In this document: positions 2,747 through 63,488 of the stretch, in pieces | Layout: the number at the start of each line of letters is the position of its first letter | How positions within the stretch are numbered: the stretch's first letter is position 1 | DNA from: a phage | DNA: 64,000 nucleotides | Strand: one strand, 5' to 3' | NCBI GenBank assembly: GCA_008273105.1 | Contig: GCA_008273105.1_4080.1 | Program-made: the position numbers and the translations under genes | The notes under the pieces: generated by a model | Database searches by the model: none | Seen by the model: only the letters and a program-made list of their open reading frames with translations | What the model was told of the DNA's origin: nothing

Positions 2747-3289
2747 TTAAGAAAGCATACGTAACAGTTGGTCGCGTTGCTCTGGACTTAATTTTTGTAG
2801 AGCATCAGGGATACTGGAACCTTGTGCTTTTGGTTGTTCTTGTTGTGCTGGTTGCTCAGTTGAGGTCGATTGTGATGGTTGTGATTCTGAACTTTCTTCG
2901 CCACCTTGTTGGTCACGGTAGTCATTCATTATATCACGAGCAGCATTTAATAGAGCAGTACCTACATCTTTTGGTGTAAAAGAACGACGAGGATTGTTCC
3001 CTAAATGTTTAATATCAAGATTGTTACCTTTAAAAAACTGTGCCACATCAGCGTAAGGTACTGATGGTTGAGCTTTACCATATTTACGTCCAACATAACG
3101 TTTAAACTCTGCCCATAAGCGGTTGGCTTCAGCACCAACTTCTTGTGCACCTTGTTCAATCTGTCCACTACCAAAAAAGCCTTTTACTTTTCCTTTTGCA
3201 CTATCAACTGCACTTTGTGAACGACTATAAGGACGAGCTTCATTTAACTCATTGTCTTCATAATCTAACATTTCATTAAGTATACTCAT
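2747..3289 (-). CDS. hypothetical protein
   Basis: 180-aa ORF in co-oriented array. Confidence 0.5.
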   Translation of the reverse strand: MSILNEMLDYEDNELNEARPYSRSQSAVDSAKGKVKGFFGSGQIEQGAQEVGAEANRLWAEFKRYVGRKYGKAQPSVPYADVAQFFKGNNLDIKHLGNNPRRSFTPKDVGTALLNAARDIMNDYRDQQGGEESSESQPSQSTSTEQPAQQEQPKAQGSSIPDALQKLSPEQRDQLLRMLS

Positions 3290-3292
3290 GTG

Positions 3293-3829
3293 TTAATCCT
3301 TTTTACCAAAACCAGCACTCATATATTGAGAGTATTTATTGTCTTTTTTCGATGCTTCAATTGCATCATCAACGGCAGTGTTTGCACGTTGTTGTCCAGC
3401 TAAGTCATAACTGTCTTCTGGTTTACCAAAATCCACTCCAATAACTGGTTCATCAACATCATCAAAATCGATATCATCTTCCAAATCAGTCATTTCAATT
3501 TGACGAGGTTCATCTTTACTACGAACACGAATCAATGCTTCTGTCATGCTTAGTAAATTGCCAATTTCATACATTAGTACATTTGATTGAACACCACGAT
3601 GACATTTAAAGTCAAACATCCAAATTTCACCACAATCTAATTCATAGAAATCTAATGGTTTTTCCATAAAAATTGTTTTCTTTAGTGCTCCAATTTCAAA
3701 CGCATCATAGCGATCCATTAGTCGCTGTGTTACTTTACTAAGTTGCTCAGGTGTTGGTTCAACTGCAAACTTAACTCGGTATTCATAAACTGGTTTCTTT
3801 TCAGTTAGGATTTGTTGTAATCTATTCAT
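3293..3829 (-). CDS. hypothetical protein
   Basis: 178-aa ORF in co-oriented array. Confidence 0.5.
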   Translation of the reverse strand: MNRLQQILTEKKPVYEYRVKFAVEPTPEQLSKVTQRLMDRYDAFEIGALKKTIFMEKPLDFYELDCGEIWMFDFKCHRGVQSNVLMYEIGNLLSMTEALIRVRSKDEPRQIEMTDLEDDIDFDDVDEPVIGVDFGKPEDSYDLAGQQRANTAVDDAIEASKKDNKYSQYMSAGFGKKD

Positions 3830-7928: not shown

Positions 7929-10592
7929 TTATTGAGTTTTCTCGATACGGATTGGTACGTAAATGAAGTTAATACTCTTAGTTGGTTGAATTGCAATATC
8001 CATCCAAAGTTCATTACGGTCAATACGCTCTGCGGTGTTGTTACTTTCATCACAAACCACTGCGAAGTTATAAAGACCCTGTTGTTGAACAATTTCAGCC
8101 AAGAAGCTATTAACTACACCACTAAATTCCTGACGAGTACTTGGAGTATTCAAACGGAATAGGAATGGTTCGGAAATAATTTCTAGTTGACGACGAATAT
8201 AAACAACTAAACGAGCAACGTTAACACGACTTAGTGCAGAAGTTTGATTAGCAGATAGAGTTTTATCTCCATAAACAAGCAAACCACGGTTAGGACGCAT
8301 TGCAATTGGGTTAATGTTGTTAGTATACATAACGTCACGTTGACCTTGGTTGTATACTACTGGTTGATATTCACCTTCGCTGTTGATAAAACCAGTACTT
8401 GCAGCGTTTGTTACAACACCACGAGTTGTACCAGCAGGTGGATACCATACATAACTAACACTATCACTGTATGCATATGTACGCATTGCAATAGTACTAC
8501 CAGGAACTGCAACTTCTTCACCATCAACGTTAGTACTTAGACACCAACCCATATACTGAGCAGCATAATCATAAGCAGTTGTACGACCAACTGAACCGTT
8601 ACTTGGTGCATTGTTAGCATTAGTAGCCCATTGTTGTACAGCACTACCGTTTCCGGTTGGATTCAAACGTGCTGGAACGTCAGTAACAATAAATGCAGTT
8701 TCTTTACGATCAGTGTTTAAAGTTACACATTCATCAAGTGTTTCAACGTAACCAGGTACACAAATTAGGTTAAAATCAATAAATTCAGAACGAATGTCAT
8801 CATTACCAATAATAACAGCAGCTAGTGCTTCAACTACTAGTTGACGTTGTGCAGCACGACCAAATAGGCCAGCACCATCAAGACTTACACCACTAACAAC
8901 TTCCCATTGACCATTAACCATTTTCTTAACAACACCTTCAGTGTTACCTAGGTCAACTGCAAGCATACCATTTTGATACAATGCCGCCGCAGGAACTTGG
9001 CTTGGGAAATTAAAGTCTTGGAAAATCATACCATTTAGTGTACTTTGGTCAGTACTGTCAAGTTTAACCCATTCACCATCAACGTTGCGATAGAAATCAT
9101 AACCATCAATGCCTTGAGACAAAGGACAAACCCAAATTAAACGGTCAGCCGCTGGTTCATCAACTTGTACATATTTGTTTTCTTCTTGTACTAGATCCCA
9201 ATCATCATTAGCAACATCAGCAACATACATAGTTACAGTTAAATTATCGGAGTTCCCGAAATCATACCAGAGAGTTCCTTCTTTTGCTACACTACGTGGT
9301 ACTGAATAACTAACACGGAAGTTATTAACGTTAATTAGAGAGTAGTTGTTACTATCTACAGTTAGTTTTTGTAGTTCAGATTCAGCAAAAATATCATCAC
9401 CACTTTGTGTGATTTTGAAACTGTAACCTTTTGTATTGGAAACAACTAAACCACCATTAGTTTCACGTTTAAATTTAAAACCATCGTTAATAATTTCAGC
9501 ATTTGCATTTAGATTATTGATGATAGTTTGGGTATTAATAACACCGCCTTGTGGAACTGCTAGTACTTTAACTGATTTATTCAAATAAACAAAAGTCATA
9601 TAGCTATCAGCACCTGCTTGTTCAATAATAGTTTCACCAAGTGGCAAAGCAGGAGCACTAATTGTTGTTAGTTTTGCACTTTGAATATAGAAAGAGAAAC
9701 TCTTACTATCTTCATCAAAACGAGATGCGATATAACTATTGTTTAGTACACCACTTTTCGCTTCAATTTCTTGGAATGAATTACCAGTATATGCTGGTAC
9801 AATATTCCAAACTTGAGTTAGGGATGCATAACGTTTAATAACAAAACGAGTACCAAAATAGTTTGAACCATTTTGGGTGTAACCATCACGAATCCAAATG
9901 TTACCTTTTTCTACAGTTGAGCCAACTGGAACTTTGTTAATTGGTGATAGGTAAGTTTCCATTTGCACTAGCCCAGAAGCAGAACGTTTATACATTAGCA
10001 TCTGACCATTGCTTGGTTTGTAACGTAGAACTAAATCATCAACATTTAAACCTACTAGACTTACATCTTCAACTTCTTCAGCACTTACAATAGTTACTGG
10101 CTTAAGTTGCCAATCATAAAAACTGCTTGGACTATCTTTCTTCGCTACATACGCTTCTACTTGTGATTGTGCGGTATCAAACCACAAAGTACCATTGGAT
10201 ACTGGGCCAGTTGGTGCTTCAGCACTTGGTGCTAGTTGTGCTAGATCGATATCAGCACGAATTACATATGCACGGTTAGTAATGCCTAGATAAGAATATA
10301 CTGCATGTAGGCCATATTCGTTTAGTTCATCACCTTGAACAACAGAACCGTTATTCATTTGAAAAATTGGTGTACCATAGGTATCAAGTGAGCTTTTTTG
10401 TGATGTTAGAAGCTGTAGTTTTCCAGCGTTTGCTTTAGTAGTTCCCGCAGCAATTGCACTGCTTCCTGGGACAAGTTTGTCTTCAGCAGTAGCGATTACA
10501 AATAGTGGTACAGTGCCAGGAGCAGCAGCGGTACTCATACTTTCATCAGTTACTGAAATGGAAACGCCAGGTGAGAGTAGATCTCCTGCCAT
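7929..10592 (-). CDS. tail sheath protein
   Basis: 887 aa; conserved sheath C-terminal domain (LVYGDKTL...RVNVARLVVYIRRQLE...); GGAGGA RBS. Confidence 0.85.
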   Translation of the reverse strand: MAGDLLSPGVSISVTDESMSTAAAPGTVPLFVIATAEDKLVPGSSAIAAGTTKANAGKLQLLTSQKSSLDTYGTPIFQMNNGSVVQGDELNEYGLHAVYSYLGITNRAYVIRADIDLAQLAPSAEAPTGPVSNGTLWFDTAQSQVEAYVAKKDSPSSFYDWQLKPVTIVSAEEVEDVSLVGLNVDDLVLRYKPSNGQMLMYKRSASGLVQMETYLSPINKVPVGSTVEKGNIWIRDGYTQNGSNYFGTRFVIKRYASLTQVWNIVPAYTGNSFQEIEAKSGVLNNSYIASRFDEDSKSFSFYIQSAKLTTISAPALPLGETIIEQAGADSYMTFVYLNKSVKVLAVPQGGVINTQTIINNLNANAEIINDGFKFKRETNGGLVVSNTKGYSFKITQSGDDIFAESELQKLTVDSNNYSLINVNNFRVSYSVPRSVAKEGTLWYDFGNSDNLTVTMYVADVANDDWDLVQEENKYVQVDEPAADRLIWVCPLSQGIDGYDFYRNVDGEWVKLDSTDQSTLNGMIFQDFNFPSQVPAAALYQNGMLAVDLGNTEGVVKKMVNGQWEVVSGVSLDGAGLFGRAAQRQLVVEALAAVIIGNDDIRSEFIDFNLICVPGYVETLDECVTLNTDRKETAFIVTDVPARLNPTGNGSAVQQWATNANNAPSNGSVGRTTAYDYAAQYMGWCLSTNVDGEEVAVPGSTIAMRTYAYSDSVSYVWYPPAGTTRGVVTNAASTGFINSEGEYQPVVYNQGQRDVMYTNNINPIAMRPNRGLLVYGDKTLSANQTSALSRVNVARLVVYIRRQLEIISEPFLFRLNTPSTRQEFSGVVNSFLAEIVQQQGLYNFAVVCDESNNTAERIDRNELWMDIAIQPTKSINFIYVPIRIEKTQ

Positions 10593-13447: not shown

Positions 13448-13924
13448 TTATTTTAGAATGTATAAGTGTTTTTCTGCATTGACCAGTCGGTGATCAATGA
13501 TTTCTTTGATAACGTTCCAGTTACCGCCGCCCAAATCGGCTCCAATTTTCGGGAAGTGTACATGAACATCTCGATCAACTTTACAAAAATAATTTAGATG
13601 TTTGAACACATCGTCGATTGCATCATAACTGACATATTTAGCACCGTCATTACCGTACATTTTTTGGGTAATACAGTTTGCAATAATCAAATTATCGTTA
13701 ATTGCTGAATATGCAATTTGTCCAATTCTAAGAAATCCCATTTCCTTTTCATATGCTTTATAATCATCATATGCCATTGGGTAACGATTTCTTAGCTCTT
13801 TTGCAAAACCTGAACCCATTTTACCCTGTGCGTTACAACCATGAGCAATTATATGTATTGCTGTTTTATCATCTGTTACAGTACTGAATAATTCAAACAG
13901 ATTACCTCGGTGTTCATGAATCAT
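13448..13924 (-). CDS. macrodomain protein, TARG1/OARD1-like (ADP-ribose processing)
   Basis: IIAHGCNAQGKMGSGFAKELRNRYP and FPKIGADLGGGNWNVI match recalled OARD1 blocks (ISHCISEDCRMGAGIA..., MPRIGCGLDRLQWENV). Confidence 0.65.
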   Translation of the reverse strand: MIHEHRGNLFELFSTVTDDKTAIHIIAHGCNAQGKMGSGFAKELRNRYPMAYDDYKAYEKEMGFLRIGQIAYSAINDNLIIANCITQKMYGNDGAKYVSYDAIDDVFKHLNYFCKVDRDVHVHFPKIGADLGGGNWNVIKEIIDHRLVNAEKHLYILK

Positions 13925-13934
13925 TATATTCTCC

Positions 13935-13966
13935 GAAAAGAAAGGACTCTGTGGTCAGAGTCCTTA
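13935..13966 (-). terminator. rho-independent terminator
   Basis: 9-bp stem AGGACTCTG/CAGAGTCCT, 4-nt loop, T-rich tail on minus strand. Confidence 0.6.
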
Positions 13967-13973
13967 TTTTAAA

Positions 13974-14231
13974 TTATTCTTCTTCACCGAAACGTATTTT
14001 CTTTAATTCTTTTCGATGCTTTCTAGCTATTGTACTTTTGTGAAGTCTATTACTGCGTTTTGTGTCTTTTGTAATGTACCATGAATCTTCTGGTGCATCA
14101 TAATCACAAAATCCATCTTCCGTAATTGTTCCTAAAAATGCAGATTTTTTAGGAATATTAGTTTGAGCTTTAGCCTGAAATTGACCTTTTGCTAATTGTT
14201 CACGAAAACTGAGCATAATAGTATCTCCCAA
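13974..14231 (-). CDS. hypothetical protein (basic C-terminus)
   Basis: 85-aa ORF. Confidence 0.45.
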   Translation of the reverse strand: MGDTIMLSFREQLAKGQFQAKAQTNIPKKSAFLGTITEDGFCDYDAPEDSWYITKDTKRSNRLHKSTIARKHRKELKKIRFGEEE

Positions 14232-14262
14232 ATTGTTAAGAAGAACTTTTTGTTCTTCACAT

Positions 14263-14514
14263 TTATTTAGGGTTGCCAGAAACCTTCACATGTTTGATAA
14301 ATGCCAAAATATCATCTTTACTAAAAGATTTTACAATAAATTCGACAGCGGAATCATACTGTTCTTGTTTAGATAGATATTCTTTCATCTTGTTAATTTT
14401 AATCTGGGCTTTTTCTTTAGCTATTGAAATATCAGGAATTTTGAACTCTACTCCCAACGTATCAGCTAGTTGTTTTGCACGAGATGATACTTTTTCAATA
14501 TCCATTAGTTCCAA
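14263..14514 (-). CDS. hypothetical protein
   Basis: 83-aa ORF. Confidence 0.45.
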   Translation of the reverse strand: MELMDIEKVSSRAKQLADTLGVEFKIPDISIAKEKAQIKINKMKEYLSKQEQYDSAVEFIVKSFSKDDILAFIKHVKVSGNPK

Positions 14515-14753
14515 CGACCTTCTTTAAGACCTTCAATAAACCCAGTACAACCACCTGGTACATAAATGTCATTTACGAAAATTTGAGGAACTTGACGAAC
14601 TGGTTCACCACAAATTTCAGACAGTTTTGAACCATCGATACCTTCAGCAACAATATCTACAAACTCCATTTCAAATTTATTTTGTTCACATACAGCTTTT
14701 GCAGTGTCGCAAAATTTACAACCAGTCTTGCGACCATAAATTTTAACTTTCAT
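14505..14753 (-). CDS. nrdC: glutaredoxin/thioredoxin (T4 NrdC-like)
   Basis: MKVKIYGRKTGCKFCDTAK: CxxC redox motif in NrdC-like context; ~82 aa. Confidence 0.75.
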   Translation of the reverse strand: MKVKIYGRKTGCKFCDTAKAVCEQNKFEMEFVDIVAEGIDGSKLSEICGEPVRQVPQIFVNDIYVPGGCTGFIEGLKEGRWN

Positions 14754-14754
14754 G

Positions 14755-15156
14755 TTATTTCCTTCTATTTCTTTGAAAAGCTTTAACAGCTTTAATAATA
14801 CTGTTACACATTCGTTCAGTCAAATACTTTTGACATTCTCGTACATCAATGTACATGAACTTATCCAATTCTGGATGACTCTTACCATATCTATTAGTGT
14901 AAGTACTTTTACAAACTAATTCATCTGGTATTGGTTTGTCTTTGGCAGTATAAAAGAAAAGTACTAACCTTTTTCCCTTTCTATAGGATACATCACCAAG
15001 AAACAGAAGATCATCTTCATCGATTTCGTATCCTGTCTCTTCGAAACATTCACGTACAGCAGCTTCTTTGAAAGTTTCATTACCCTCAGCTTTCCCTTTA
15101 GGTAAATCCCAATGATTCTGTCCGTGTTGTATGTCCGATAAGTATCTGACCATCAC
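14755..15156 (-). CDS. Nudix hydrolase
   Basis: Canonical Nudix box GKAEGNETFKEAAVRECFEETGY. Confidence 0.8.
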   Translation of the reverse strand: MMVRYLSDIQHGQNHWDLPKGKAEGNETFKEAAVRECFEETGYEIDEDDLLFLGDVSYRKGKRLVLFFYTAKDKPIPDELVCKSTYTNRYGKSHPELDKFMYIDVRECQKYLTERMCNSIIKAVKAFQRNRRK

Positions 15157-15264
15157 GATAAAATATTATACCACAACTATAACGCATATCTTATCTCTTT
15201 GTCATCAATCGATGTTCAGATACTAATAATTATATCAGTTATTGGTTTTTTGTCCCACTATTTT

Positions 15265-16377
15265 TTAGAACATTTGTTTGATTGCTTCATAACGAAGTTC
15301 ACAAACAAAATCACGAATTTCTGACGTTTCAAGTTCACCATCTTTGACCATTTGCTGAATATCAGGCAATTCAACATCAGTATAACGATCATAAACTTTA
15401 ATAATTAGATCTTCAAGTTCTAAATCAATTTCTTTTCGCAAAATGAAGTATTCCAAAACTTTATAAAGGAATTCTTCACCTCCGTTATTTTTAATATTCA
15501 TATCCAATAAAATATTACCCATTTCAATAGGGGTCTTTTTACGGAATGTTTTGATATCATCACGGAAACGTTTGATATAATTACTAAATTTAACATACTT
15601 AACTGGAACTTTAATAGCACCGTTAAGTACTGAATCATTATTTACTTCTTCATTTTCAAGAAGAATAGACCACAGAAAATATGGTTTATATACATCCGTA
15701 CAGTTCTCTGCAATATAATCAATAAGGTCTAAATTCTTTTTGGTCAAAGATGTATTAAACACCTTTTCGTAATAACCAAATTTACTTAGCGTCTTAAGGA
15801 ACTTTGCAGGCTTTTCTTCGGAAAATGCTTTTTCGAATTCCACAAAAACACGGTCAGGAACAAGATGATTTAGCTCACCACTATTGACCATTCCAATAGC
15901 TAGTTCCTCAGTGCTTTCATGGATAGTAAAGTCTGAATAACGAGTAGCAAATCGAGCAAGACGTAACACACGTAATGGATCTTCTTTAAAATGGTCAGAA
16001 ACATGACGTAGTACCTTGTTCTTGATATCAGCTTTACCACCGTATGGATCAATGTGAATTTGTAGTACTGGATCATACGAAATTGCATTTATTGTTAGGT
16101 CACGGCGATACAAATCTTGTTCGAGTGTTACGCCTTTTGTATCCACTTCAAAGCCACCATATCCAGTACCAGTTTTACGCTCAGTACGGGCTAATGCGTG
16201 TTCATTACCTTCTGGACTTAGATATACAGGGAAATCCTTACCTACTTGCTTATAGCCAATACTTTGCAAGTACTTAATATCAGATTCAGTTGCTCCGACA
16301 ATGACATAATCTTTGTCTTTTGCACGAAGACCCATTAAACGGTCACGGACGTAGCCACCAACCAAATACTTTTTCAT
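15265..16377 (-). CDS. cca: tRNA nucleotidyltransferase (CCA-adding enzyme), head/neck domain only
   Basis: MKKYLVGGYVRDRLMGL...DKDYVIVG...ALARTERK...RRDLTINA...EDPLRVLRLARF closely matches class II CCA enzymes; shorter than E. coli Cca. Confidence 0.85.
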   Translation of the reverse strand: MKKYLVGGYVRDRLMGLRAKDKDYVIVGATESDIKYLQSIGYKQVGKDFPVYLSPEGNEHALARTERKTGTGYGGFEVDTKGVTLEQDLYRRDLTINAISYDPVLQIHIDPYGGKADIKNKVLRHVSDHFKEDPLRVLRLARFATRYSDFTIHESTEELAIGMVNSGELNHLVPDRVFVEFEKAFSEEKPAKFLKTLSKFGYYEKVFNTSLTKKNLDLIDYIAENCTDVYKPYFLWSILLENEEVNNDSVLNGAIKVPVKYVKFSNYIKRFRDDIKTFRKKTPIEMGNILLDMNIKNNGGEEFLYKVLEYFILRKEIDLELEDLIIKVYDRYTDVELPDIQQMVKDGELETSEIRDFVCELRYEAIKQMF

Positions 16378-16512
16378 ATTATTCCCCCATCAACCAATCA
16401 CGCAAACGTTCCCATAAGCCTTTGGGCTTATATTCTGGGTATTCATATTCATCAGTGCCTTGCTCGGAAACACCCCAATCTTCTTCTAACATAGCAATCA
16501 TAATGCCTCCAA

Positions 16513-16935
16513 TTAAATTAATCTGTCACGTAGACGGTCGTAATATTTTTCGTGTATAGCTAGTATACACTGATATGCAGAATAGTCAATGCCAAATGTA
16601 TCATCAATGAACATGTACTGATCAAGTGCTTCTGGCCCATTATCATCAACTGGTAATGTCCCTTCTTTTTTTGATAGGGTGTGCCACATCAACTCACTTT
16701 CAATATGGTGAGTTGCGTATGTCAATTCAATCTTACTTTTTCTTAGTAAAATTAACAATTCATCATTGTCGTCGAGTGCATTACGAAATTTAATACGAAC
16801 AGTACCCTGAAAATTATTAGTGTACATAACACGATGTTGATTATATGTAACTAAACCACGTCTTTCAGTACTGATTTCGTGTTCAGCAAAGTACTTTAAC
16901 GTTTCATTAAATTTTGGAATTTTAGTAACGTCCAA
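16513..16935 (-). CDS. hypothetical protein (paralog pair A)
   Basis: 140 aa; shares (Q/Y)xFIDDTFGIDxxxYQ motif with 16922-17338. Confidence 0.5.
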   Translation of the reverse strand: MDVTKIPKFNETLKYFAEHEISTERRGLVTYNQHRVMYTNNFQGTVRIKFRNALDDNDELLILLRKSKIELTYATHHIESELMWHTLSKKEGTLPVDDNGPEALDQYMFIDDTFGIDYSAYQCILAIHEKYYDRLRDRLI

Positions 16936-17338
16936 TCACATAATCCTCATAAAGTTTGTATACCCTCATTATACTCTGATATGTATCAAAGTCAATGCCA
17001 AAGGTATCATCAATGAACTGATATTGCAAAAACTCTTCCTCTGTAGCAGCAATAGGAAGAGTCCCGTTTCGTTGTTCTGTTGATTGAACATCCTCAATAT
17101 ACATCAACACTATACTTTCATCCAGATTTATATCTATCATAAAAACATCTTCACTATAAAATATGTTATATGTACGGATGAAGAGATTTCCTGTTCTATC
17201 ATAACTTGACACGTGTGTTTCATAATACATTTTATCTAAACTAAAGAACAAACCTGTACTATCTGGCTTTTTAGTATTTTTTAATTTAATTTCGATAGCA
17301 TCAATCATAGGTTTAATATCAAACTTTTTCATAGACAA
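16922..17338 (-). CDS. hypothetical protein (paralog pair B)
   Basis: 138 aa; paralog of 16513-16935. Confidence 0.5.
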   Translation of the reverse strand: MSMKKFDIKPMIDAIEIKLKNTKKPDSTGLFFSLDKMYYETHVSSYDRTGNLFIRTYNIFYSEDVFMIDINLDESIVLMYIEDVQSTEQRNGTLPIAATEEEFLQYQFIDDTFGIDFDTYQSIMRVYKLYEDYVIGRY

Positions 17339-17514
17339 ATCACATACTTATTACTATGTGGATCGTAACAATATGAATCATTTACCTTAATACCAGGCTT
17401 AAGTTCAATAGTTGTTCCTGTTTCTGTACTGGGTTCTGCATCACAATAAATCATCACACCAACCCCGACTAGTAAGGATATGATACATATAACTATACAT
17501 ATTGTATATTCCAT
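17329..17514 (-). CDS. small membrane protein
   Basis: 61 aa, N-terminal hydrophobic helix. Confidence 0.4.
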   Translation of the reverse strand: MEYTICIVICIISLLVGVGVMIYCDAEPSTETGTTIELKPGIKVNDSYCYDPHSNKYVICL

Positions 17515-17527
17515 AAATTTATCTCCA

Positions 17528-17923
17528 TTATAAAAAGTAATTATACAGTTTATTGTACAATATAAAAAGGTCTTTCACATTATCATAAGTAATATCAGAT
17601 ACATCATGAATTAATGATAACTGAAAAAATGAAGCTTCGTCTATTTCTGCTGGAATTATAACATCACCATCGTCTTCGTCCATTTTATTGGTGTAGTATT
17701 TTATGTGATCTACATTCAACTCAATAGAGAACGCAATGTTGGTTTTTGTATAATCTTCAATTAATCCAATATATTGAGATTTTTCATTAATAAAAAATCC
17801 AATCCCAACACAACGGTTATCTGGATATGGATAGTACCATCTATTAATAACTAGGTGTTCAGGTAAGTCCATATCATGTGTTGATATTAGAGATTTTACA
17901 ATTTCCATCCAGGAATAATTCAT
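17528..17923 (-). CDS. hypothetical protein
   Basis: 131-aa ORF. Confidence 0.5.
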   Translation of the reverse strand: MNYSWMEIVKSLISTHDMDLPEHLVINRWYYPYPDNRCVGIGFFINEKSQYIGLIEDYTKTNIAFSIELNVDHIKYYTNKMDEDDGDVIIPAEIDEASFFQLSLIHDVSDITYDNVKDLFILYNKLYNYFL

Positions 17924-17976
17924 AATTAAAACTCCATAAGAAAAGGGACAGAATTAATCTGTCCCTTTAGTATATA

Positions 17977-18309
17977 TTACTCTTCGTTTTCTGTCAAATC
18001 ATCAAGAACTGGGTGTTCTGGATGGTTTCGGCGGTGTAATTTAATGCTTTTGTCTTTACTGAATACAGTTTCCATCTTATCAAAAGATTCAACAATTGCT
18101 TTATACAAATCAGCATCATCAGCAGTTACTGATTTACTACCAGCAGTTAAAGTTACAGCATATTGAGTTTTATGCTCTTTCTTAACATGAACACCAATGT
18201 CTAGTACTGAAGAAGTACGGTACTTATCCAGACTTTTTGCTTCATTGTAAATAGCATCTTGGATTGCTGGAGTGATATCAACGTTGCCTTGAATATTTAG
18301 ATTTAGCAT
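17977..18309 (-). CDS. hpf: ribosome hibernation promoting factor / RaiA-family protein (short form)
   Basis: MLNLNIQGNVDITPAIQDAIYNEAKSLDKY...LYKAI aligns with recalled RaiA/HPF N-terminal signature (NITSKQMEITPAIRQHV...). Confidence 0.8.
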   Translation of the reverse strand: MLNLNIQGNVDITPAIQDAIYNEAKSLDKYRTSSVLDIGVHVKKEHKTQYAVTLTAGSKSVTADDADLYKAIVESFDKMETVFSKDKSIKLHRRNHPEHPVLDDLTENEE

Positions 18310-18325: not shown

Positions 18326-19252
18326 TTAGAGTGAACTTAACAACAAATCTGCTCGGTTTGTAACTTGACGATACCATAAGGAATTCATAATTTCTTTTTT
18401 AAATTTCTTAGGGTTATCATTTTTCACACTTTTCCAAAGTTTATTAAACGTTGCTAATTTATCAACACCCATTGTATAGGACATTTCATAAAGAATACGT
18501 TGTTGTTCTTTGGTCAGATTTACTGCTTCTTTTTTCTGCATCAATAATAAAAAGTCATTATATGTTCTTTTCATATCTTGCATTAAAAGTTTATTGGCTT
18601 GAGCTTTGGTAATACCGTTTCTGTACTTAATCGCATCAGATTCTTTTCTACCCAAATAATGCCCATAACCTATTGTATAATTACCTTTCATGTCCTTGTA
18701 GGGATGAAATTTAGAATTGTGGAAAGGAACTCCGACTTTCCCACCAAGTAAACGGCGTTTGTTCTTGGACTGAAATTCAATTGAACCTTCAGCTTCTTTG
18801 ATGTGATTGACAATTTCTGGATCATTATAATCAAACAGTACAGTCACATCTGGTAACAATACGTTCTTCAAATCCTCTTTTGTTGGGATAAAGATACCCT
18901 GAGAAGTATGAAGAGTAGCATTTAAATTGATATTTTTCAACAAAATAACATACTCTTCAAGTTGTACATTTTTAGGTTTAAACTTTTTAGCAATAGAATA
19001 ATAACTATCACCAGGTTGAACCGTATAATGCTTCTCGCCGCGTGGAACATCCTTTGATATTTCTACCTTTGGTAATTCCTGCTTTTGAATTTGCGTAACT
19101 TGTGGTTTTAAATTGTGTACCTGACTTTCGTCCGATGATGATACACGATCATTTTGAGAAAAACCATAAAATCCAATCGCAGCGACAAGTACTGTGCAAA
19201 CTAGAACACCATAAGTAGTCTTAGTTTTCAGTGCTTTTTTCGCTTGTTTCAA
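18326..19252 (-). CDS. T4-type lysozyme with N-terminal signal anchor and LysM domain
   Basis: YKDMKGNYTIGYGHYLG and WYRQVTNRA match T4 lysozyme; LysM-like YTVQPGDSYYSIAKKF; likely TTG start at 19252 behind AAAGGAGG. Confidence 0.75.
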   Translation of the reverse strand: MKQAKKALKTKTTYGVLVCTVLVAAIGFYGFSQNDRVSSSDESQVHNLKPQVTQIQKQELPKVEISKDVPRGEKHYTVQPGDSYYSIAKKFKPKNVQLEEYVILLKNINLNATLHTSQGIFIPTKEDLKNVLLPDVTVLFDYNDPEIVNHIKEAEGSIEFQSKNKRRLLGGKVGVPFHNSKFHPYKDMKGNYTIGYGHYLGRKESDAIKYRNGITKAQANKLLMQDMKRTYNDFLLLMQKKEAVNLTKEQQRILYEMSYTMGVDKLATFNKLWKSVKNDNPKKFKKEIMNSLWYRQVTNRADLLLSSL

Positions 19253-19420
19253 AACGCCTCCTTTGTTGATTGTTAAGATGGGCAATCACAAAGATGGCAA
19301 AGAGGCCATTTGCAAAAGCCTCATCGGACTTTCTACAGTACAAAAACGTTCTTTTCAAATGTTTAAGTAGTATAGCATATTTTTATTTTATTACAAGACA
19401 TATTTACTGTAAAAACCACA

Positions 19421-32500: not shown

Positions 32501-34771
32501 TTACTTATACCATTGCATTTCTCTAATATCAATGATAATTTTTGATGCTAACTTGATGTTTGGTTTTTTAGGAAGTACTGATTTCTTATATAGAACATCA
32601 CGAATGTATTGTACTTTATCATCGAAATATTCTAAGACTTCTTCATACTTCCATTTACCATTACGAATATCCATCAACATTTGTGCATCTGGTCGTTTAA
32701 CTTGAATAATTCCACTTTGTAATGCTTCTTCTGCACTATTCAAAAGTCGGATTGTGTGCATAGCATGTTTACAGTTTCCATGTAATGCAGTTTTACCATT
32801 TCTACGAGTAACCAGTGTACCGTTCGGAACTGAAAAACAAACAGTTCTGTAGTTAGTTACTGGAATTTTTTCAAGATTTTGTTTCATGTTTATTTTTTCT
32901 GATTTAGGTTTCATATTGATATGAACTTGATACATTTCAATATAACCAAAATTAGTTTCGTTTGTGTATGGTCCCCATTTCGATGTTTCATAACCGCACA
33001 GTAATGCTAGTTTTTGAACATCATCAGCTAATAATGAATTAGCAGTATAATATACATATGTGTCATCATGATTGACCAAATTACGTTTTGTACCATCACC
33101 TTGCAACAAACCTTTTAGCAGAAAATCCATTTTTCGTTTTGTTAAATCAAATGCCCAATTTGGAATTCTTTTATTATATGATCCATGCCCACAATCATTA
33201 TATAATGCTTCAGCCACTTCACGTGGAAATACAAATCTTGATTCATCATTTGATTGGTAATCTTTTCTTTCGTTAATGTATTCCTGAAATATCATTTGTC
33301 CAGATTGTTTGTATTTTGATAAAGCACAACGCATACCAGGACTGGCTTTTGATTGTGAAATGTATAATGATTTTACTTTTCCATCTCTAAAACTTATACT
33401 ACCATCTGAAAGAAACCATCCCATCAGTTGAAGATAAACTTTGATATCCATATAGTCAATTGGGCTTTTTTTATCTTTATATTCCTTTGTTATTGGAGAT
33501 AATGTATTCAAAATTTTATAAGTTTCTTTTAATTGTGCTGCTTCAACAAATTGCCATTCTGACATATCTTTTTGCTGATTACGTGCATAATTCTTAACAT
33601 ACATTCTGTGATTTGCAGTCACTAACGTATCTTGGTGATGACCAGTGAAATGGTAAAGATTTCCATTGTATAAATTATCAAAACGTTCTGTGTATTTTTG
33701 ATACTCTATTTTGTGATTTTTATCAAAAGTCGCTAATAGATCTTTATCAGTGATGTCGTCAAATAATTTCCAACCATCTTTAGTTAAGAATTCAGTATCA
33801 AAACTATAACAGTCGTATCCGTGTTGTGATTCTAAAATAGCACGTTTGGCATTACGATTTTCTTTCCATTTATGATAACTTTTCCTATTCTCACTATTTT
33901 CCTGATATTCTTTTTCGTTAAATTTGACAATTAGTTCTGGTTTAGTTTTCAACTCTTCAGTACTACGCTCTTTAGAAAAATAACGCAATGATCCATCACC
34001 GTTGATAGTGCTTTCATTCGGATTTTTAATAATCGCAAAAATGTTTTCTCCGTAATGAATTAGTTCATAACCATTATTAAAATTCAATAAATTGAAATCA
34101 CGATCAAGAATTTTTTCAGTAGTGTAGTTATGCACTAATCTTACAAAATGATATTGCTTTAATGGATTTTTCGAAACTAACTGCAATGACGTATCACGCA
34201 TATATTTTTCAAAATCAATCTTTTTAGCATTAAATGGATGTAAGTTGGATGTATCTAAACGTTCAACAAGATACTGTGGGAATGAATCATACATCCACGC
34301 AAGAACCTCATCGACAGGGTGTTCTTCTAAAATCTCATTTAATCGTTTTTCAGCAATACGCTCTTTATCCATCCAACCGTGATGATTTGTCATACGCTTA
34401 ATCTGATTATATGCATATCCAGTGTATGAAAATGCAATCTTGGAACTAAGAAGTTTTTGGTTAAATGAACGAAGATAGTCATAAATCTCAGTACTTTCTA
34501 CAATGTGTTCTGGATCGACCCATAGTGATTCCAATATATTAGGGTTGGCTTCAGTGTATAATTTTAAATACTGATTTAACTCATAGAATTTAGTATCTTC
34601 TTCATTTTTATCAGCTACTTCTTTGACCTTATAGAATGGCGTAAGAATAAATTCTTTATTAGCAAGAAAAATACCACGATAATCAGTATCACTTTCAGGT
34701 GTACTGGTTCCGTAGGCTTGTGACCCAGCCAAGTGTTTCACTATTGTTTGTTCAACATATTGGTTATTCAT
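32501..34771 (-). CDS. Pol-beta-superfamily nucleotidyltransferase interrupted by an intein
   Basis: N-terminal HLAGSQAYGTSTPESDTDYRGIF (GS...SDxD NTase motif); in-frame ~346-aa intein; C-extein CKHAMHTIRLL... Confidence 0.7.
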   Translation of the reverse strand: MNNQYVEQTIVKHLAGSQAYGTSTPESDTDYRGIFLANKEFILTPFYKVKEVADKNEEDTKFYELNQYLKLYTEANPNILESLWVDPEHIVESTEIYDYLRSFNQKLLSSKIAFSYTGYAYNQIKRMTNHHGWMDKERIAEKRLNEILEEHPVDEVLAWMYDSFPQYLVERLDTSNLHPFNAKKIDFEKYMRDTSLQLVSKNPLKQYHFVRLVHNYTTEKILDRDFNLLNFNNGYELIHYGENIFAIIKNPNESTINGDGSLRYFSKERSTEELKTKPELIVKFNEKEYQENSENRKSYHKWKENRNAKRAILESQHGYDCYSFDTEFLTKDGWKLFDDITDKDLLATFDKNHKIEYQKYTERFDNLYNGNLYHFTGHHQDTLVTANHRMYVKNYARNQQKDMSEWQFVEAAQLKETYKILNTLSPITKEYKDKKSPIDYMDIKVYLQLMGWFLSDGSISFRDGKVKSLYISQSKASPGMRCALSKYKQSGQMIFQEYINERKDYQSNDESRFVFPREVAEALYNDCGHGSYNKRIPNWAFDLTKRKMDFLLKGLLQGDGTKRNLVNHDDTYVYYTANSLLADDVQKLALLCGYETSKWGPYTNETNFGYIEMYQVHINMKPKSEKINMKQNLEKIPVTNYRTVCFSVPNGTLVTRRNGKTALHGNCKHAMHTIRLLNSAEEALQSGIIQVKRPDAQMLMDIRNGKWKYEEVLEYFDDKVQYIRDVLYKKSVLPKKPNIKLASKIIIDIREMQWYK
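32774..33811 (-). mobile_element. intein with LAGLIDADG homing endonuclease domain
   Basis: Block A CYSFDTEFLTKDGWK; LAGLIDADG-like LMGWFLSDGSISF and LLKGLLQGDGT; C-terminal ...ALHGN then Cys+1; boundaries approximate. Confidence 0.75.
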
Positions 34772-57050: not shown

Positions 57051-57306
57051 ATTCTACAGTATTAAGCTTCTGACAAATCATATCAGCTTCTACTCGGTCT
57101 TTATAATAAATGGTAAATCCAAATCTACTTGTTACCCTTTTCTCACTACGGTGTATACAGTTTACAATATAGTACTTATTATTTTGTGCAGAAAAACGAA
57201 CTTCATAATTTCGAAAAGAAGTATTAGGTTCATCCATAGCAACTATATATAACATAAAAATGAAAAACACTGTTATTAGAAAAGCAATAATAATTATTAC
57301 TGTCAT
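57049..57306 (-). CDS. small membrane protein
   Basis: 85 aa, N-terminal TM helix. Confidence 0.45.
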   Translation of the reverse strand: MTVIIIIAFLITVFFIFMLYIVAMDEPNTSFRNYEVRFSAQNNKYYIVNCIHRSEKRVTSRFGFTIYYKDRVEADMICQKLNTVE

Positions 57307-57782
57307 TTATCAAGACCCTTATCATAAATGCAATTAACAATAATTCCAGCATCTTCCAGTACTTTAATAGCTTCTGGTGGTGTACGAGGATAATTTTTGA
57401 GATAAATTACACGTGAAATCCCACTACCTGCGATCAACTTAGAACAAGTATAACATGGTTGTAGTGTTGTGTAAAGAGTAGCACCTTGACGTTCAGTAGG
57501 AGAACTATAGAGTAAAGCGTTCATTTCAGCATGGATTTCATGAATATTACTCCACTCATGATGTTCATGCTTTGCTTCATCACTAACCCAGTCTTGAAAA
57601 CACCCATCATTGACTAAGTGTTGATTCACGTCACAACAATTTGGTTGTTTTGATGGAGTACCATTGTAACCAGTACTCAATACTCGGTTATTTTTAACAA
57701 TAACACAACCAACTTTTTGTGAAATACATTTACTTTCCTCAGCAACTACTTCTGCTATCTTCAACCAAGTCGTATGTTTCAT
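57303..57782 (-). CDS. cd: dCMP deaminase (T4 Cd-like)
   Basis: MKHTTWLKIAEVVAEESKC..., HAEMNAL, PCYTCSKLI zinc motifs; start at Met5 behind GGAG. Confidence 0.8.
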   Translation of the reverse strand: MKHTTWLKIAEVVAEESKCISQKVGCVIVKNNRVLSTGYNGTPSKQPNCCDVNQHLVNDGCFQDWVSDEAKHEHHEWSNIHEIHAEMNALLYSSPTERQGATLYTTLQPCYTCSKLIAGSGISRVIYLKNYPRTPPEAIKVLEDAGIIVNCIYDKGLDK

Positions 57783-58263
57783 TATAAGCTCCAATACTTA
57801 ACAATGCGTTTTTACACAAATCATGAATTTTCATAACTCGAATATAGTTTAACACATCTGTTTCATTAATTTCAAATGGTTTATCTGCATATGTGGACCA
57901 CGTTTGATTTAATTCAATAACAAATGTAATTTTATCTGTATCCATAATATTATCACAAAATCTACGAAAATCTTGCTCTTCATCGGAAAGTCTGAAATTT
58001 AAATCATTTTTTAAACCATTAACTGTGAAGCAAATACCAGTACTGTAACCGATGCAAATATCTTCAATATCATATAATCCATAAATTAATTTAGAGATAA
58101 ACGTGCTATATTTGTTTCTATGATAATAGTTTAATATTTCTTGTTTAATATTAATTTCAATATCAGTAGTTTTTTGTAATGTAAGTTTAATTAATTCTAA
58201 TGTCTTGATTATGTTATCTAACCAGATATTAGTATCATCTATACTTAGGTGTGTGTATTTCAT
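57739..58263 (-). CDS. hypothetical protein
   Basis: 174-aa ORF. Confidence 0.5.
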   Translation of the reverse strand: MKYTHLSIDDTNIWLDNIIKTLELIKLTLQKTTDIEINIKQEILNYYHRNKYSTFISKLIYGLYDIEDICIGYSTGICFTVNGLKNDLNFRLSDEEQDFRRFCDNIMDTDKITFVIELNQTWSTYADKPFEINETDVLNYIRVMKIHDLCKNALLSIGAYNETYDLVEDSRSSC

Positions 58264-61258: not shown

Positions 61259-62050
61259 TTAAATTTCAAATACAAATTTAGGATTGTAATCAAAATTCTC
61301 ACAAGCTCCACTGTATGATTCATAGCCTCGTGGATTACAAATGATACGTGTCTTACCAATGTGGTAGTCAAAACTACTATGAACATGACCATGAATCCAA
61401 ACATCAGCACCCAAATCTTCAATGTACTGATCCATATCGGAACAGTAACAACCATTCAGTGAATCATTTTTATATTTTGGTGAAACACTTTGATAACTTG
61501 GTGCGTGATGGGTAACCACGATTACCTTGAAATCATTATCATGCATAAAGCGAACTGTGTCAATAGAATTTTTGATAAATTGTTTATCTTTGTGATGCAT
61601 AAACTCAGTATCATCTGGTGTCAGTTTCTTACGCCAAGGCTCTGATGTTGTTCCATGACGGATATGTTTGTAATCGTTCATCTTCAGACGAGCATCAAAC
61701 TTCGTCAAAGAATTACCTTTATCGAAGTCTGTCCACAGAGTACTACCAACAAGCAGTACTCCATCCAGCCATACAAATTTGTTTTGCAAAAAGATGAAAT
61801 TAGGAATCTCATCTTGCATATCGGACAGTACTTTATGCGTTTTGTGGATATTGGAACCATAATATTCATGATTGCCAGGAACCAGTACTACATTCTTAAA
61901 CTGCTTACATAGTGATTCTATACCAGTACGGTAACGACTGCGTTTAACTTCATCGAAGTCCCCAGCAATAATCAGTACTGTATCACTGTAATCACCACTA
62001 TGGAGGTAATCAGTACCACCGTGTACGTCAGACGTTACAACAAATTTCAT
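61259..62050 (-). CDS. calcineurin-like metallophosphoesterase
   Basis: SDVHGG, AGDFDE, GNHE, GHVH metal-binding motifs. Confidence 0.7.
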   Translation of the reverse strand: MKFVVTSDVHGGTDYLHSGDYSDTVLIIAGDFDEVKRSRYRTGIESLCKQFKNVVLVPGNHEYYGSNIHKTHKVLSDMQDEIPNFIFLQNKFVWLDGVLLVGSTLWTDFDKGNSLTKFDARLKMNDYKHIRHGTTSEPWRKKLTPDDTEFMHHKDKQFIKNSIDTVRFMHDNDFKVIVVTHHAPSYQSVSPKYKNDSLNGCYCSDMDQYIEDLGADVWIHGHVHSSFDYHIGKTRIICNPRGYESYSGACENFDYNPKFVFEI

Positions 62051-62069
62051 AATTACCTCCTATAAGTGT

Positions 62070-63488
62070 TTAGCCAAGTGATTCAATGATACTGTTTGAG
62101 AACACCTCAACAGCACTATCACGAATTTCTAAAATACGAGTATAGTCGTCACAAGTGTTTTTGTCAAATCTAAATTCAATAAACACTGGTAAGAACAGTG
62201 ATGGCTCACCAGTACGCTTGTCGAATACAATGTCATTACACTCAACTGTAACCACTTTACCAATAAGTTCTTGCATTCTTTCCCAAATGGTTTTAAATGT
62301 CCATTCAGCATCTTTCTCTTTGATACCAGTACCCACATTAACTTTCAATGAACCACAAGCACTTTCCAGTTGTAAAGAACCTAGGCTTCCTTTACGTTTA
62401 CCTTCACCTTCATTGAAACCAACAATACGCAAGTCTAGTTGCATTTTCAATTTCATTTTCAACTGCTTCGGAGAAGTGTGAGATTTCCAGATACCATCTT
62501 CACATTTCAGTACTGAACCCTCTTCACCTTCGTTCATTAGTTCACTATTGTACTCAAATGCTTCTTTGATGTTTAGAACTTTACGGAATCCAACCATACG
62601 AACAAAATCACTATTGAGTTCGTTAATTGCATCTACTAAGATCTCGCGACGTTCTTTACGTTTTACATCCCATACACCTTCACAAAATGCATCATATGGA
62701 ACAACATCCCATAGAACGAATACAGTACGCATTGCTTCATTCTGACTGATGCTATCTTTACCAGCTTTCTGAATTATACCGTTGCCAGTAGTGCGTGGGA
62801 GAATGGTTTCCCCATCATTGTCCAGTACTACACCTTCCCCCATAAAGACCACACCACTACTAAAACGTTCATCTTTACTTTGGATGATGTGAGCAAGACC
62901 TGCCATCTCACCATCACGACAACCCAGGAAGTCGTATAGTTTACCATTACGGGATGTAGAAGTTAATGAACCATTAATAACAACGTGGTTCAAGTACTGA
63001 CCATCCATTTTCACTTCTGATATAGCGTAACCATAATCTTTGAAGTTGATGTTCTTTGCAGTCTTTTTGTCAATCAAAGAACAACGCATATATGGTTCGT
63101 CTTTAATAAAGCCTTTACCAAATACATCATTGCAGTTCTTTTCTTGAATACCACAATCAAGGTTTTTAGTAAGCATTTTACGGAGAACTTCCTGATCATC
63201 TTCAGATACAGAACCCAGTACTGAAGCAATGAAATCACGCCCCGCATTTCCTGTCACATCACGCTTGTAAATGCATTCTAGCTTATCAATTGCTTCATCT
63301 AACGTCATATGTTGATATACGTCATCAGCGGCAGGGAGCTTCTTATAGCCACTAACGATAGAAGGGTCTAGAGTATATTTCAGTACTTTTTGTAAAGTTA
63401 CATTATCTTTATTTTGTTCAAGAATAGCTTTTTTGCCTAGTGTACTGCTAGTATTTTTAATGCTTTCAAGAATTGCTAAAATGCTCAT
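62070..63488 (-). CDS. ATP-dependent DNA ligase (T4 gp30-like)
   Basis: N-terminus matches T4 ligase as recalled (…GKKAILEQNKDN…); KMDG motif I, EGSVLK motif V, LFLPVFIEFRFDK motif VI. Confidence 0.85.
   Translation of the reverse strand: MSILAILESIKNTSSTLGKKAILEQNKDNVTLQKVLKYTLDPSIVSGYKKLPAADDVYQHMTLDEAIDKLECIYKRDVTGNAGRDFIASVLGSVSEDDQEVLRKMLTKNLDCGIQEKNCNDVFGKGFIKDEPYMRCSLIDKKTAKNINFKDYGYAISEVKMDGQYLNHVVINGSLTSTSRNGKLYDFLGCRDGEMAGLAHIIQSKDERFSSGVVFMGEGVVLDNDGETILPRTTGNGIIQKAGKDSISQNEAMRTVFVLWDVVPYDAFCEGVWDVKRKERREILVDAINELNSDFVRMVGFRKVLNIKEAFEYNSELMNEGEEGSVLKCEDGIWKSHTSPKQLKMKLKMQLDLRIVGFNEGEGKRKGSLGSLQLESACGSLKVNVGTGIKEKDAEWTFKTIWERMQELIGKVVTVECNDIVFDKRTGEPSLFLPVFIEFRFDKNTCDDYTRILEIRDSAVEVFSNSIIESLG

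Follow-up and report, generated by a model that had tools for sequence, protein, structure and literature searches.

A class II tRNA nucleotidyltransferase gene with an apparently decayed HD domain in a Rak2/121Q-like jumbo coliphage

RESULTS

A cca-like gene in a jumbo coliphage

We analyzed a 64,000-nucleotide stretch of phage DNA (contig GCA_008273105.1_4080.1, referred to here as the window) that carries a complete cca-like open reading frame on its minus strand (Table 1). The ORF starts with ATG and codes for 370 amino acids followed by a stop codon. A Shine-Dalgarno-like GGGGGAA sequence lies 4 nt 5′ of the ATG and would probably act as the ribosome-binding site. A small upstream ORF ends in a stop codon at 16379-16381, only 1 nt before the cca ATG, and the N-terminus of the protein (MKKYLVGG) pairs in BLASTP with Escherichia coli Cca from residue 1 (MKIYLVGG). 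Together, these three observations provide good support for the start codon. We also scanned the surroundings of the gene for promoters and terminators. Promoter hits did not exceed those obtained with shuffled sequence, and the terminator scan was negative.

The region from 14000 to 18000 shares 99.8% identity with Escherichia phage SP27 and 97.8-99.6% with phages SHEFM2K, phAPEC6, slurp01, 121Q, and Sharanji. Judged by these identities, the window belongs to a Rak2/121Q-like jumbo coliphage (Asteriusvirus, Rak2-like) with relatives of ~350 kb. The phage origin given in the first-pass annotation is correct.

The kind of gene found at this locus was already known. A SHEFM2K coding sequence annotated as "tRNA nucleotidyltransferase" matches the protein with 100% identity, and the GenBank names in other relatives are either "cca: CCA-adding enzyme" or else "multifunctional CCA protein". 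It also gives a full-length match to PHROG 2244 (tRNA nucleotidyltransferase; E 3.2e-116), with amino acids 1-369 aligned to profile positions 3-387 of 392. Because GenBank and PHROGs both annotate the gene, its identification is not a discovery. Orthologues in the Asteriusvirus, Rak2, GAP32, CBB, and Eneladusvirus jumbo phages belong to the same PHROG 2244 family and do not differ from it in any substantive way. The proteins from jumbo phages of Klebsiella, Pectobacterium, and Erwinia are 59-69% identical to it. A comparative review of jumbo phages counts CCA-adding enzymes as RNA-repair genes (PMC7824862). Our search for a characterized phage CCA-adding enzyme found none in the literature covered.

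Table 1. Features of the cca locus. Coordinates are positions in the 64,000-nucleotide window; residues are those of the 370-aa protein.
Feature	Residues	Coordinates	Strand	Basis or remark
Shine-Dalgarno-like GGGGGAA, 4 nt 5′ of ATG		16382..16388	-	Direct sequence reading
Complete cca-like ORF	1-370	15265..16377	-	Stop codon 15265-15267; ORF listing, SHEFM2K identity, PHROG 2244 match
Head, catalytic Pol-beta nucleotidyltransferase domain	1-146	15940..16377	-	Pfam, E. coli Cca identity, beta-sheet core in model
Motif A GGYVRDRLMGLRAKDKD, catalytic carboxylates D21 and D23	7-23	16309..16359	-	Regular expression and alignment
BxA element ARTERK (63-68) and flexible loop (68-87)	63-87	16117..16191	-	Loop length comparison
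Motif B RRDLTINA	91-98	16084..16107	-	Invariant columns among relatives
Motif C DPYGGKAD	110-117	16027..16050	-	D110, P111, G114, and D117 invariant
Motif D EDPLRVLRLARF, EDxxR nucleotide-selection template	132-143	15949..15984	-	Regular expression and alignment
Neck domain, including DRVFVEFEKAF (175-185)	149-207	15757..15933	-	Pfam PolyA_pol_RNAbd
All-helical body/tail module without histidine, apparently a decayed and shortened HD domain plus tail	208-370	15268..15756	-	

The catalytic head and neck are conserved

We found that the N-terminal 207 residues closely resemble the catalytic half of E. coli Cca. Pfam identified a PolyA_pol head at amino acids 4-124 (3e-18) and a PolyA_pol_RNAbd neck at amino acids 149-207 (4e-8). 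BLASTP with E. coli Cca gave 52% identity over amino acids 1-207, and the similarity ended there. The NCBIfam model PRK10885 matched the protein at 4.8e-81 and 272.6 bits, but this match covered model positions 1-207 of 409 only and missed the cutoff of 451 bits. The first-pass annotation had described this half as a near-textbook class II tRNA nucleotidyltransferase, a description that fits the sequence well. Motifs A (GGxVRD...DxD), B (RRDxTxNA), C (DPxxGxxD), and D (EDxxRxxRxxRF) are intact, and both catalytic carboxylates, on which the identification was said to depend, are present: D21 and D23 align with D21 and D23 of E. coli Cca. Across 20 relatives, motif A shows no variation at G7, G8, R11, D12, and D23 and conservation of at least 90% at D21. 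The residues of motif D that are invariant among relatives are E132, D133, P134, R136, R139, R142, and F143.

We used published rules to discriminate CCA-adding enzymes from CC-adding enzymes and from A-adding enzymes and poly(A) polymerases (PAPs) (PMC2910056). According to these rules, the signature ERxxxExxxhh marks CCA- and CC-adding enzymes, and sRxxxExxxhh, with a small residue in the first position, marks A-adding enzymes and PAPs. [quoted passage not shown] The flexible-loop segment of the phage protein has 20 residues, compared with 21 in E. coli Cca, and the same length of 20 is found in 79 of 82 relatives; the loop is thus not deleted. The counterpart of the ERxxxExxxhh signature is DRVFVEFEKAF, in which the first position is D, acidic like E but not E itself. 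Among the 82 relatives this position is E in 65, D in 15, and N in one, with one sequence not assignable. The DRxxxE form is confined to the Asteriusvirus subclade and represents a conservative change. The intact motifs and the retained loop support the assignment of the protein to the class II tRNA nucleotidyltransferases as a CCA-adding enzyme.

The fold of the whole protein was predicted with AlphaFold2 from a 20-sequence alignment, giving a model with a mean pLDDT of 92.6. Foldseek aligned this model end to end (~390-398 columns) with the class II enzymes 3H38, 5HC9, 4WC2, and 1MIV at TM scores of 0.64-0.72. The Thermotoga maritima CCA-adding enzyme scored highest (0.72), followed by the Aquifex aeolicus A-adding enzyme (0.65) and the Bacillus stearothermophilus CCA-adding enzyme (0.64). 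Because the alignment spans the whole length of the model, the protein is predicted to have the standard four-domain layout of head, neck, body, and tail.

The C-terminal module appears to be a decayed HD domain

The protein's C-terminal part contains no histidine between amino acids 205 and 370, so an H...HD...D metal site is impossible there. The Pfam HD model (PF01966) did not match the phage protein even at E ≤ 10, and the same scan of E. coli Cca, which served as a positive control, placed PF01966 at amino acids 229-328 (2.4e-14). The domain search of the 370 residues thus returned the PolyA_pol head and the PolyA_pol_RNAbd neck, and no HD domain.

We compared the C-termini at the level of profiles. 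A profile of 18 phage-type C-termini aligned in hhalign with a profile of six intact HD-type C-termini at 96.9% probability (E 1.3e-10) over 123 columns, pairing phage amino acids ~245-367 with E. coli Cca residues ~277-403. HMMs built from the phage-type and HD-type C-termini also matched each other's set in the same register. In a joint alignment, we followed the residues that do not vary among intact forms: H255-D256 of E. coli Cca are matched by E241-N242 of the phage protein, H305 by R272, H309 by K276, and D345 by Y310. The 13-aa segment that contains H223, E225, and D227 is gone, as is a 19-aa loop with H270 and H273; H231 falls opposite D217 in a less certain part of the alignment. The 13- and 19-aa losses are the main deletions in a module that is ~40 residues shorter than the E. 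coli HD domain and tail. These alignments show homology between amino acids ~245-367 and the latter half of the E. coli-type HD domain plus tail, with the metal ligands all replaced or deleted in the phage protein. The first-pass annotation had called the enzyme one that lacks the HD domain. This is right for the HD motif, which is absent, but the domain itself is not simply missing: a shortened, ligand-free relic remains.

An exhaustive profile search with the C-terminal module against 1.84 billion representatives returned only 48 matches, all of which are located C-terminally in ~350-400-aa proteins or occur in fragments. We scanned ten of them and found the PolyA_pol_RNAbd neck in ten, the PolyA_pol head in nine, and Pfam HD in none. 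Several of the matches (P0161, P0148, P0136, P0164, and P0156) are intermediates, which reach 1e-9 to 6e-18 against the HD-type profile and have lost the HD dipeptide. One of them, P0161, retains the first His cluster, with QD where HD would stand. Phages are not the only carriers of HD-less forms, as P0082 (42% identity) is found in an ordinary bacterial chromosomal neighborhood. These E. coli-like Cca proteins, which come from bacteria and metagenomes (P0082, along with P0161, P0148, and P0164), share the head and neck of the phage enzyme and the position and ancestry of its C-terminal module, but they represent varied stages of HD decay. We infer that the direction of change was loss of the HD site, since decay of the complete H...HD...D constellation seems much more plausible than its assembly by convergence.

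Two features point to selection: the reading frame is uninterrupted, and the patches NNGGEEFLYK and EDLIxKVYDRY in the C-terminal module are kept in relatives down to ~40% identity. The net charge of the module is -8 (pI 4.8). We considered net charge as a test for tRNA binding and rejected it as not diagnostic, since relatives range from -10 to +18.

Specificity and phosphoesterase activity

We considered whether the enzyme might have a different activity from CCA addition. It could add only A, add only CC, or tag RNAs as a poly(A) polymerase and not finish tRNAs. Close class II relatives switch specificity through small changes, and the C-terminal half, which is heavily remodeled in the phage protein, affects the reaction (covered in part by PMC2910056). 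The first D of DRxxxE is also classed by some as a small residue, which in that position would mark A-adding enzymes and PAPs. On the other hand, D is a conservative acidic replacement in a family in which 65 of 82 members keep ERxxxE, and the retained loop argues against a CC-adding enzyme. The bacterial PAP motif [LIV][LIV]G[RK][RK]Fx[LIV]h[HQL][LIV] is absent from the protein and from all 82 relatives. The PcnB models scored far under their cutoffs (TIGR01942, 95.4 against 305.65 bits; PRK11623, 49.7 against 702 bits), whereas the Cca model drew its 272.6 bits from the N-terminal half. We saw no partner gene for a CC- or A-adding enzyme, and we regard an altered specificity as very unlikely.

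It is still less probable, to the point of being hardly credible, that the protein is a bifunctional enzyme with phosphoesterase activity. This reading is favored by GenBank names in slurp01, phAPEC6, Sharanji, and CBB, which include "multifunctional CCA protein" and [quoted passage not shown]. Such names were apparently transferred from E. coli Cca through the N-terminal match, the only part of the protein that the NCBIfam equivalog model recognizes. The lack of histidine, the replaced or deleted ligand positions, and the negative Pfam scan all speak against it, and we exclude it on these sequence grounds. We would therefore not expect 2',3'-cyclic phosphodiesterase or phosphatase activity in the phage protein. 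Since the HD domain appears to have decayed and its metal ligands are lost, the multifunctional labels are over-annotations.

Phage tRNA genes as candidate substrates

ARAGORN found no tRNA genes in the 64-kb window, in agreement with the first-pass annotation, and Rfam gave nothing there at gathering thresholds. We therefore read the tRNA complement from close relatives, combining their annotations with ARAGORN runs on the tRNA cluster, which lies ~165 kb away from cca. The cluster comprises six tRNA genes in SP27 and six in SHEFM2K; Sharanji has seven, as reported (PMC11895373). In SP27 and SHEFM2K, the genes for tRNA-Asn, tRNA-Met, and tRNA-Ser-UGA end in N73-CCA, and in those for tRNA-Thr-UGU, tRNA-Ser-ACU, and tRNA-Gly-UCC the terminal N73-C runs into AAA. 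Sharanji encodes CCA in the Met, Arg, and Ser-UGA genes and not in the Thr, Asn, Ser-ACU, and Gly genes. About half of the tRNA genes (three in SP27 and SHEFM2K, four in Sharanji) thus lack an encoded CCA, and their transcripts require post-transcriptional completion of the CCA end.

All tRNA genes of E. coli encode CCA, and the Cca of this host serves only in repair (PMC6961547). Set beside the CCA-less phage genes, this gives the phage enzyme an obvious job. The earlier proposal that the enzyme might service phage tRNAs encoded elsewhere gains concrete support from the CCA-less genes in the closest genomes. We also asked whether a Sharanji gene annotated as "tRNA-specific adenosine deaminase" might be the partner of the A34 tRNA-Ser. 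The orthologue in the window is dCMP-deaminase-like (PHROG 174, 3e-62), and we rejected this candidate.

DISCUSSION

We consider it likely that the gene codes for a class II ATP(CTP):tRNA nucleotidyltransferase of the gammaproteobacterial, E. coli-like lineage that is carried by Rak2/121Q-like jumbo phages, has an HD domain and tail decayed to a body and tail without phosphoesterase activity, and finishes the phage's own tRNAs. In this model, the head and neck hold all elements of the catalytic core (DxD, BxA, the flexible loop, RRD, and EDxxR), and residues 1-207 are predicted to polymerize C, C, and A onto the 3′-OH of tRNA without a template. The C-terminal 163 residues descend from the HD phosphohydrolase domain and tail of the cellular enzyme but lost all metal ligands and ~40 residues, and the module would now serve solely as the body and tail that hold the acceptor and T-arm of the tRNA. 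The phage enzyme would complete the 3′ ends of tRNA-Thr-UGU, tRNA-Ser-ACU, and tRNA-Gly-UCC, and infected E. coli would gain capacity to maintain CCA ends.

Several points count against this model. The host Cca could itself mature the phage tRNAs. Phage T4 leaves its CCA-less tRNAs to host Cca, so a phage copy of the enzyme is not strictly required. The signature of the protein is DRxxxE and not the canonical ERxxxE. Finally, an acidic C-terminal module is unexpected for an RNA-binding surface, although the charge of relatives extends to strongly positive values.

Comparison with known enzymes places the phage protein closest to E. coli Cca (b3056, 412 aa; PRK10885, "multifunctional CCA addition/repair protein"). 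The two share the same motif architecture, a nearly identical flexible loop, and C-termini that are homologous by profile. Unlike E. coli Cca, the phage-encoded protein lacks the HD ligands, is ~40 residues shorter, scores below the family cutoff, and is not expected to be a phosphoesterase. E. coli PcnB and the A-adding and CC-adding enzymes of Aquifex have the class II core in common with it but give weaker matches in sequence and structure. The phage protein differs from them in that it has no PAP motif, has an undeleted loop, and scores far lower against their models than against Cca models.

The main role of the enzyme could instead be to rebuild tRNA 3′ ends damaged by immunity systems or toxins, through tail cleavage by Cas12a3, exonucleolytic turnover, or trimming after extension by MenT or AbiE. 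This role is compatible with tRNA maturation. RuvC-type two-metal nucleases are expected to leave 3′-OH products. By analogy, the products of Cas12a3 should carry 3′-OH ends that an HD-less enzyme could extend. Cas12a3 is not known from E. coli. Cas12a3 is an immune nuclease with a RuvC domain that specifically cuts the CCA tails of tRNAs (PMC12851939), the AbiE and MenT abortive-infection toxins also act on the CCA end, and CCA-adding enzymes have been placed among the RNA-repair functions of jumbo phages (PMC7824862). An RNA-repair nucleotidyltransferase of the RlaP family is encoded in the same window. However, no genetic or biochemical tie links the enzyme to any defense system, and the cca neighbors are nucleotide-metabolism and unknown genes with no adjacent ligase or kinase-phosphatase (Pnkp) gene. 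We judge damage repair to be plausible but unlikely as the main role, though less so than an altered specificity.

The chemistry of the damaged ends further limits this alternative. Metal-independent tRNases leave 2',3'-cyclic-phosphate or 3'-phosphate ends, which cannot be healed without the HD ligands. The cyclic-phosphodiesterase and phosphatase activity of E. coli Cca resides in its HD domain (PMC6961547), the catalytic residues of which have no counterpart here, so that only 3′-OH ends should be extendable. The first-pass annotation had suggested repair after both anticodon and acceptor nucleases. Cuts in the anticodon loop are beyond any CCA-adding enzyme; repair after acceptor cleavage is conceivable for 3′-OH ends and is not expected for phosphorylated ones. 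A more elaborate version of the defense model is that the decayed HD module, given its negative charge and its acidic patches, which are strongly conserved and particular to the family, has been repurposed for a preference for phage tRNAs, for docking to a phage or host partner, or for escape from a host factor, which would make the enzyme a dedicated countermeasure to immunity directed at tRNA 3′ ends (Cas12a3-like cleavage, AbiE/MenT extension). We consider this version speculative and improbable, and we continue to favor completion of the phage's own tRNAs.

Two candidate functional links were examined and set aside. The metallophosphoesterase and ligase genes at 61259-63488 might have formed a compensating pair for end healing and sealing, but the ligase is an ATP-dependent DNA ligase (PHROG 114, 6e-119) and not an RNA ligase. 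For an operon-level link of cca to the neighboring NUDIX, glutaredoxin, and macro-like genes, we found no support other than their adjacency.

Our analysis adds three points to the existing annotation: an HD relic that can be traced through intermediates, a multifunctional annotation that is wrong, and the lack of an encoded CCA in half of the tRNA genes of the closest genomes. The practical value of these results is modest. They correct a recurring over-annotation in jumbo phages ("multifunctional CCA protein", "2',3'-cyclic phosphodiesterase"), as the phosphoesterase site is gone, and they bound the repair hypothesis to 3′-OH ends. They also tie a phage enzyme to identifiable substrates, the tRNA genes that end in N73-C-AAA, which makes the proposed servicing of phage tRNAs directly testable. 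The phage protein and its surviving intermediates would clearly document the decay of a domain: a formerly catalytic HD domain retained solely as structural body in an enzyme that binds tRNA.

Genes flanking cca

We examined the genes surrounding cca, the phage gene for a CCA-adding enzyme. Just upstream of cca is a pair of neighbouring ORFs with a 14-nt overlap. Their products are paralogous and have the C-terminal motif GTLP...QYxFIDDTFGIDxxxYQ in common, with 43% of residues identical across 54 aa (E 3e-12). A homologue of the ribosome hibernation family S30AE is found 1.6 kb upstream of cca and represents a phage-encoded ribosome-associated factor. A 319-aa protein encoded at 18326-19285 contains a LysM match and a hydrophobic segment at its N-terminus in addition to a lysozyme domain. 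It is a candidate endolysin or virion-associated muramidase.

The region directly downstream of cca (13448-15156, minus strand) codes for a NUDIX hydrolase, a glutaredoxin, two small ORFs of unknown function, and a macro-domain-like protein. The last of these is annotated as "Appr-1-p processing" in related phages. A link between these neighbours and ADP-ribose or RNA-end metabolism is speculative. The stop codon of cca and the start of the NUDIX gene are separated by a 108-nt gap, and this gap contains a candidate promoter. We consider this site only a lead because a promoter scan of the region around cca found no excess of such sites over shuffled sequences.

Features of the window and tRNA genes of related phages (L004, L005, and L006 are stretches with local coordinates)
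Feature	Location	Strand	Match
Glutaredoxin	window 14505-14753	-	2e-8
Macro-domain-like protein	window 13448-13924	-	weak, E 0.009, below Pfam cutoff
NUDIX hydrolase	window 14755-15156	-	1e-12
Promoter-like site	window 15229-15256	-	GGGACA-16-TATAAT, extended -10 TG
Paralogous ORF pair, 140 and 138 aa	window 16513-16935 and 16922-17338	-	PHROG 20693 (both), function unknown
S30AE (RaiA/HPF) homologue, 110 aa	window 17977-18309	-	Pfam PF02482, 3e-10
Phage-lysozyme-domain protein, 319 aa	window 18326-19285	-	Pfam PF00959, 1.6e-11
RlaP-family RNA-repair nucleotidyltransferase, 756 aa	window 32501-34771	-	Pfam PF10127, 4e-15
dCMP-deaminase-like ORF	window 57303-57794	-	PHROG 174, 2.9e-62; Pfam dCMP_cyt_deam_1, 6e-22
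Metallophosphoesterase and DNA ligase	window 61259-63488	-	PHROG 1649; PHROG 114
tRNA-Asn and tRNA-Met, same position	L004 (Sharanji) 10297-10463; L005 (SHEFM2K) 3203-3442		
tRNA-Ser, anticodon ACU (A at position 34)	L004 (Sharanji) 10471-10562; L005 (SHEFM2K) 3450-3541; L006 (SP27) 3036-3127		

Other genes in the window

GC content is 31-37% across the window (1-64000). Every 2-kb bin has a negative GC skew, in agreement with the almost exclusively minus-strand coding of annotated relatives. The RlaP-family protein contains a clean 345-aa insertion relative to its Sharanji orthologue (410 aa, 98% identical). The insert begins with Cys321, ends in ...HGN665, and is followed by Cys. It also has an internal LAGLIDADG_3 match. 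Present in this genome and absent from Sharanji, the insert is evidently an intein that carries a homing endonuclease. Elsewhere, the gene directly upstream of that for an ATP-dependent DNA ligase (472 aa) encodes a calcineurin-like metallophosphoesterase (263 aa).

The Sharanji orthologue of the deaminase ORF was published under the name "tRNA-specific adenosine deaminase". The window ORF matches dCMP deaminase families far better than this label, and the tRNA-editing annotation is probably wrong.

tRNA genes in related phages

We compared tRNA genes among Sharanji, SHEFM2K, and SP27. The tRNA-Asn and tRNA-Met genes occupy a shared position, but those of Sharanji are wholly different from those of SHEFM2K and SP27. 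The Sharanji tRNA-Asn is 73 nt and lacks CCA, and its "Met" tRNA is 90 nt with a long extra arm. In SHEFM2K and SP27, both genes are 75 nt and encode CCA. Sharanji also has an additional tRNA-Arg(UCU). The tRNA cassette turns over between genomes that are otherwise ~97% identical.

All three phages have a tRNA-Ser(ACU) gene that does not encode CCA. This tRNA is unusual because A34 is not known in bacterial tRNAs other than tRNA-Arg(ACG). Deamination of A34 to inosine would allow the phage tRNA-Ser to read AGA (Arg) as well.
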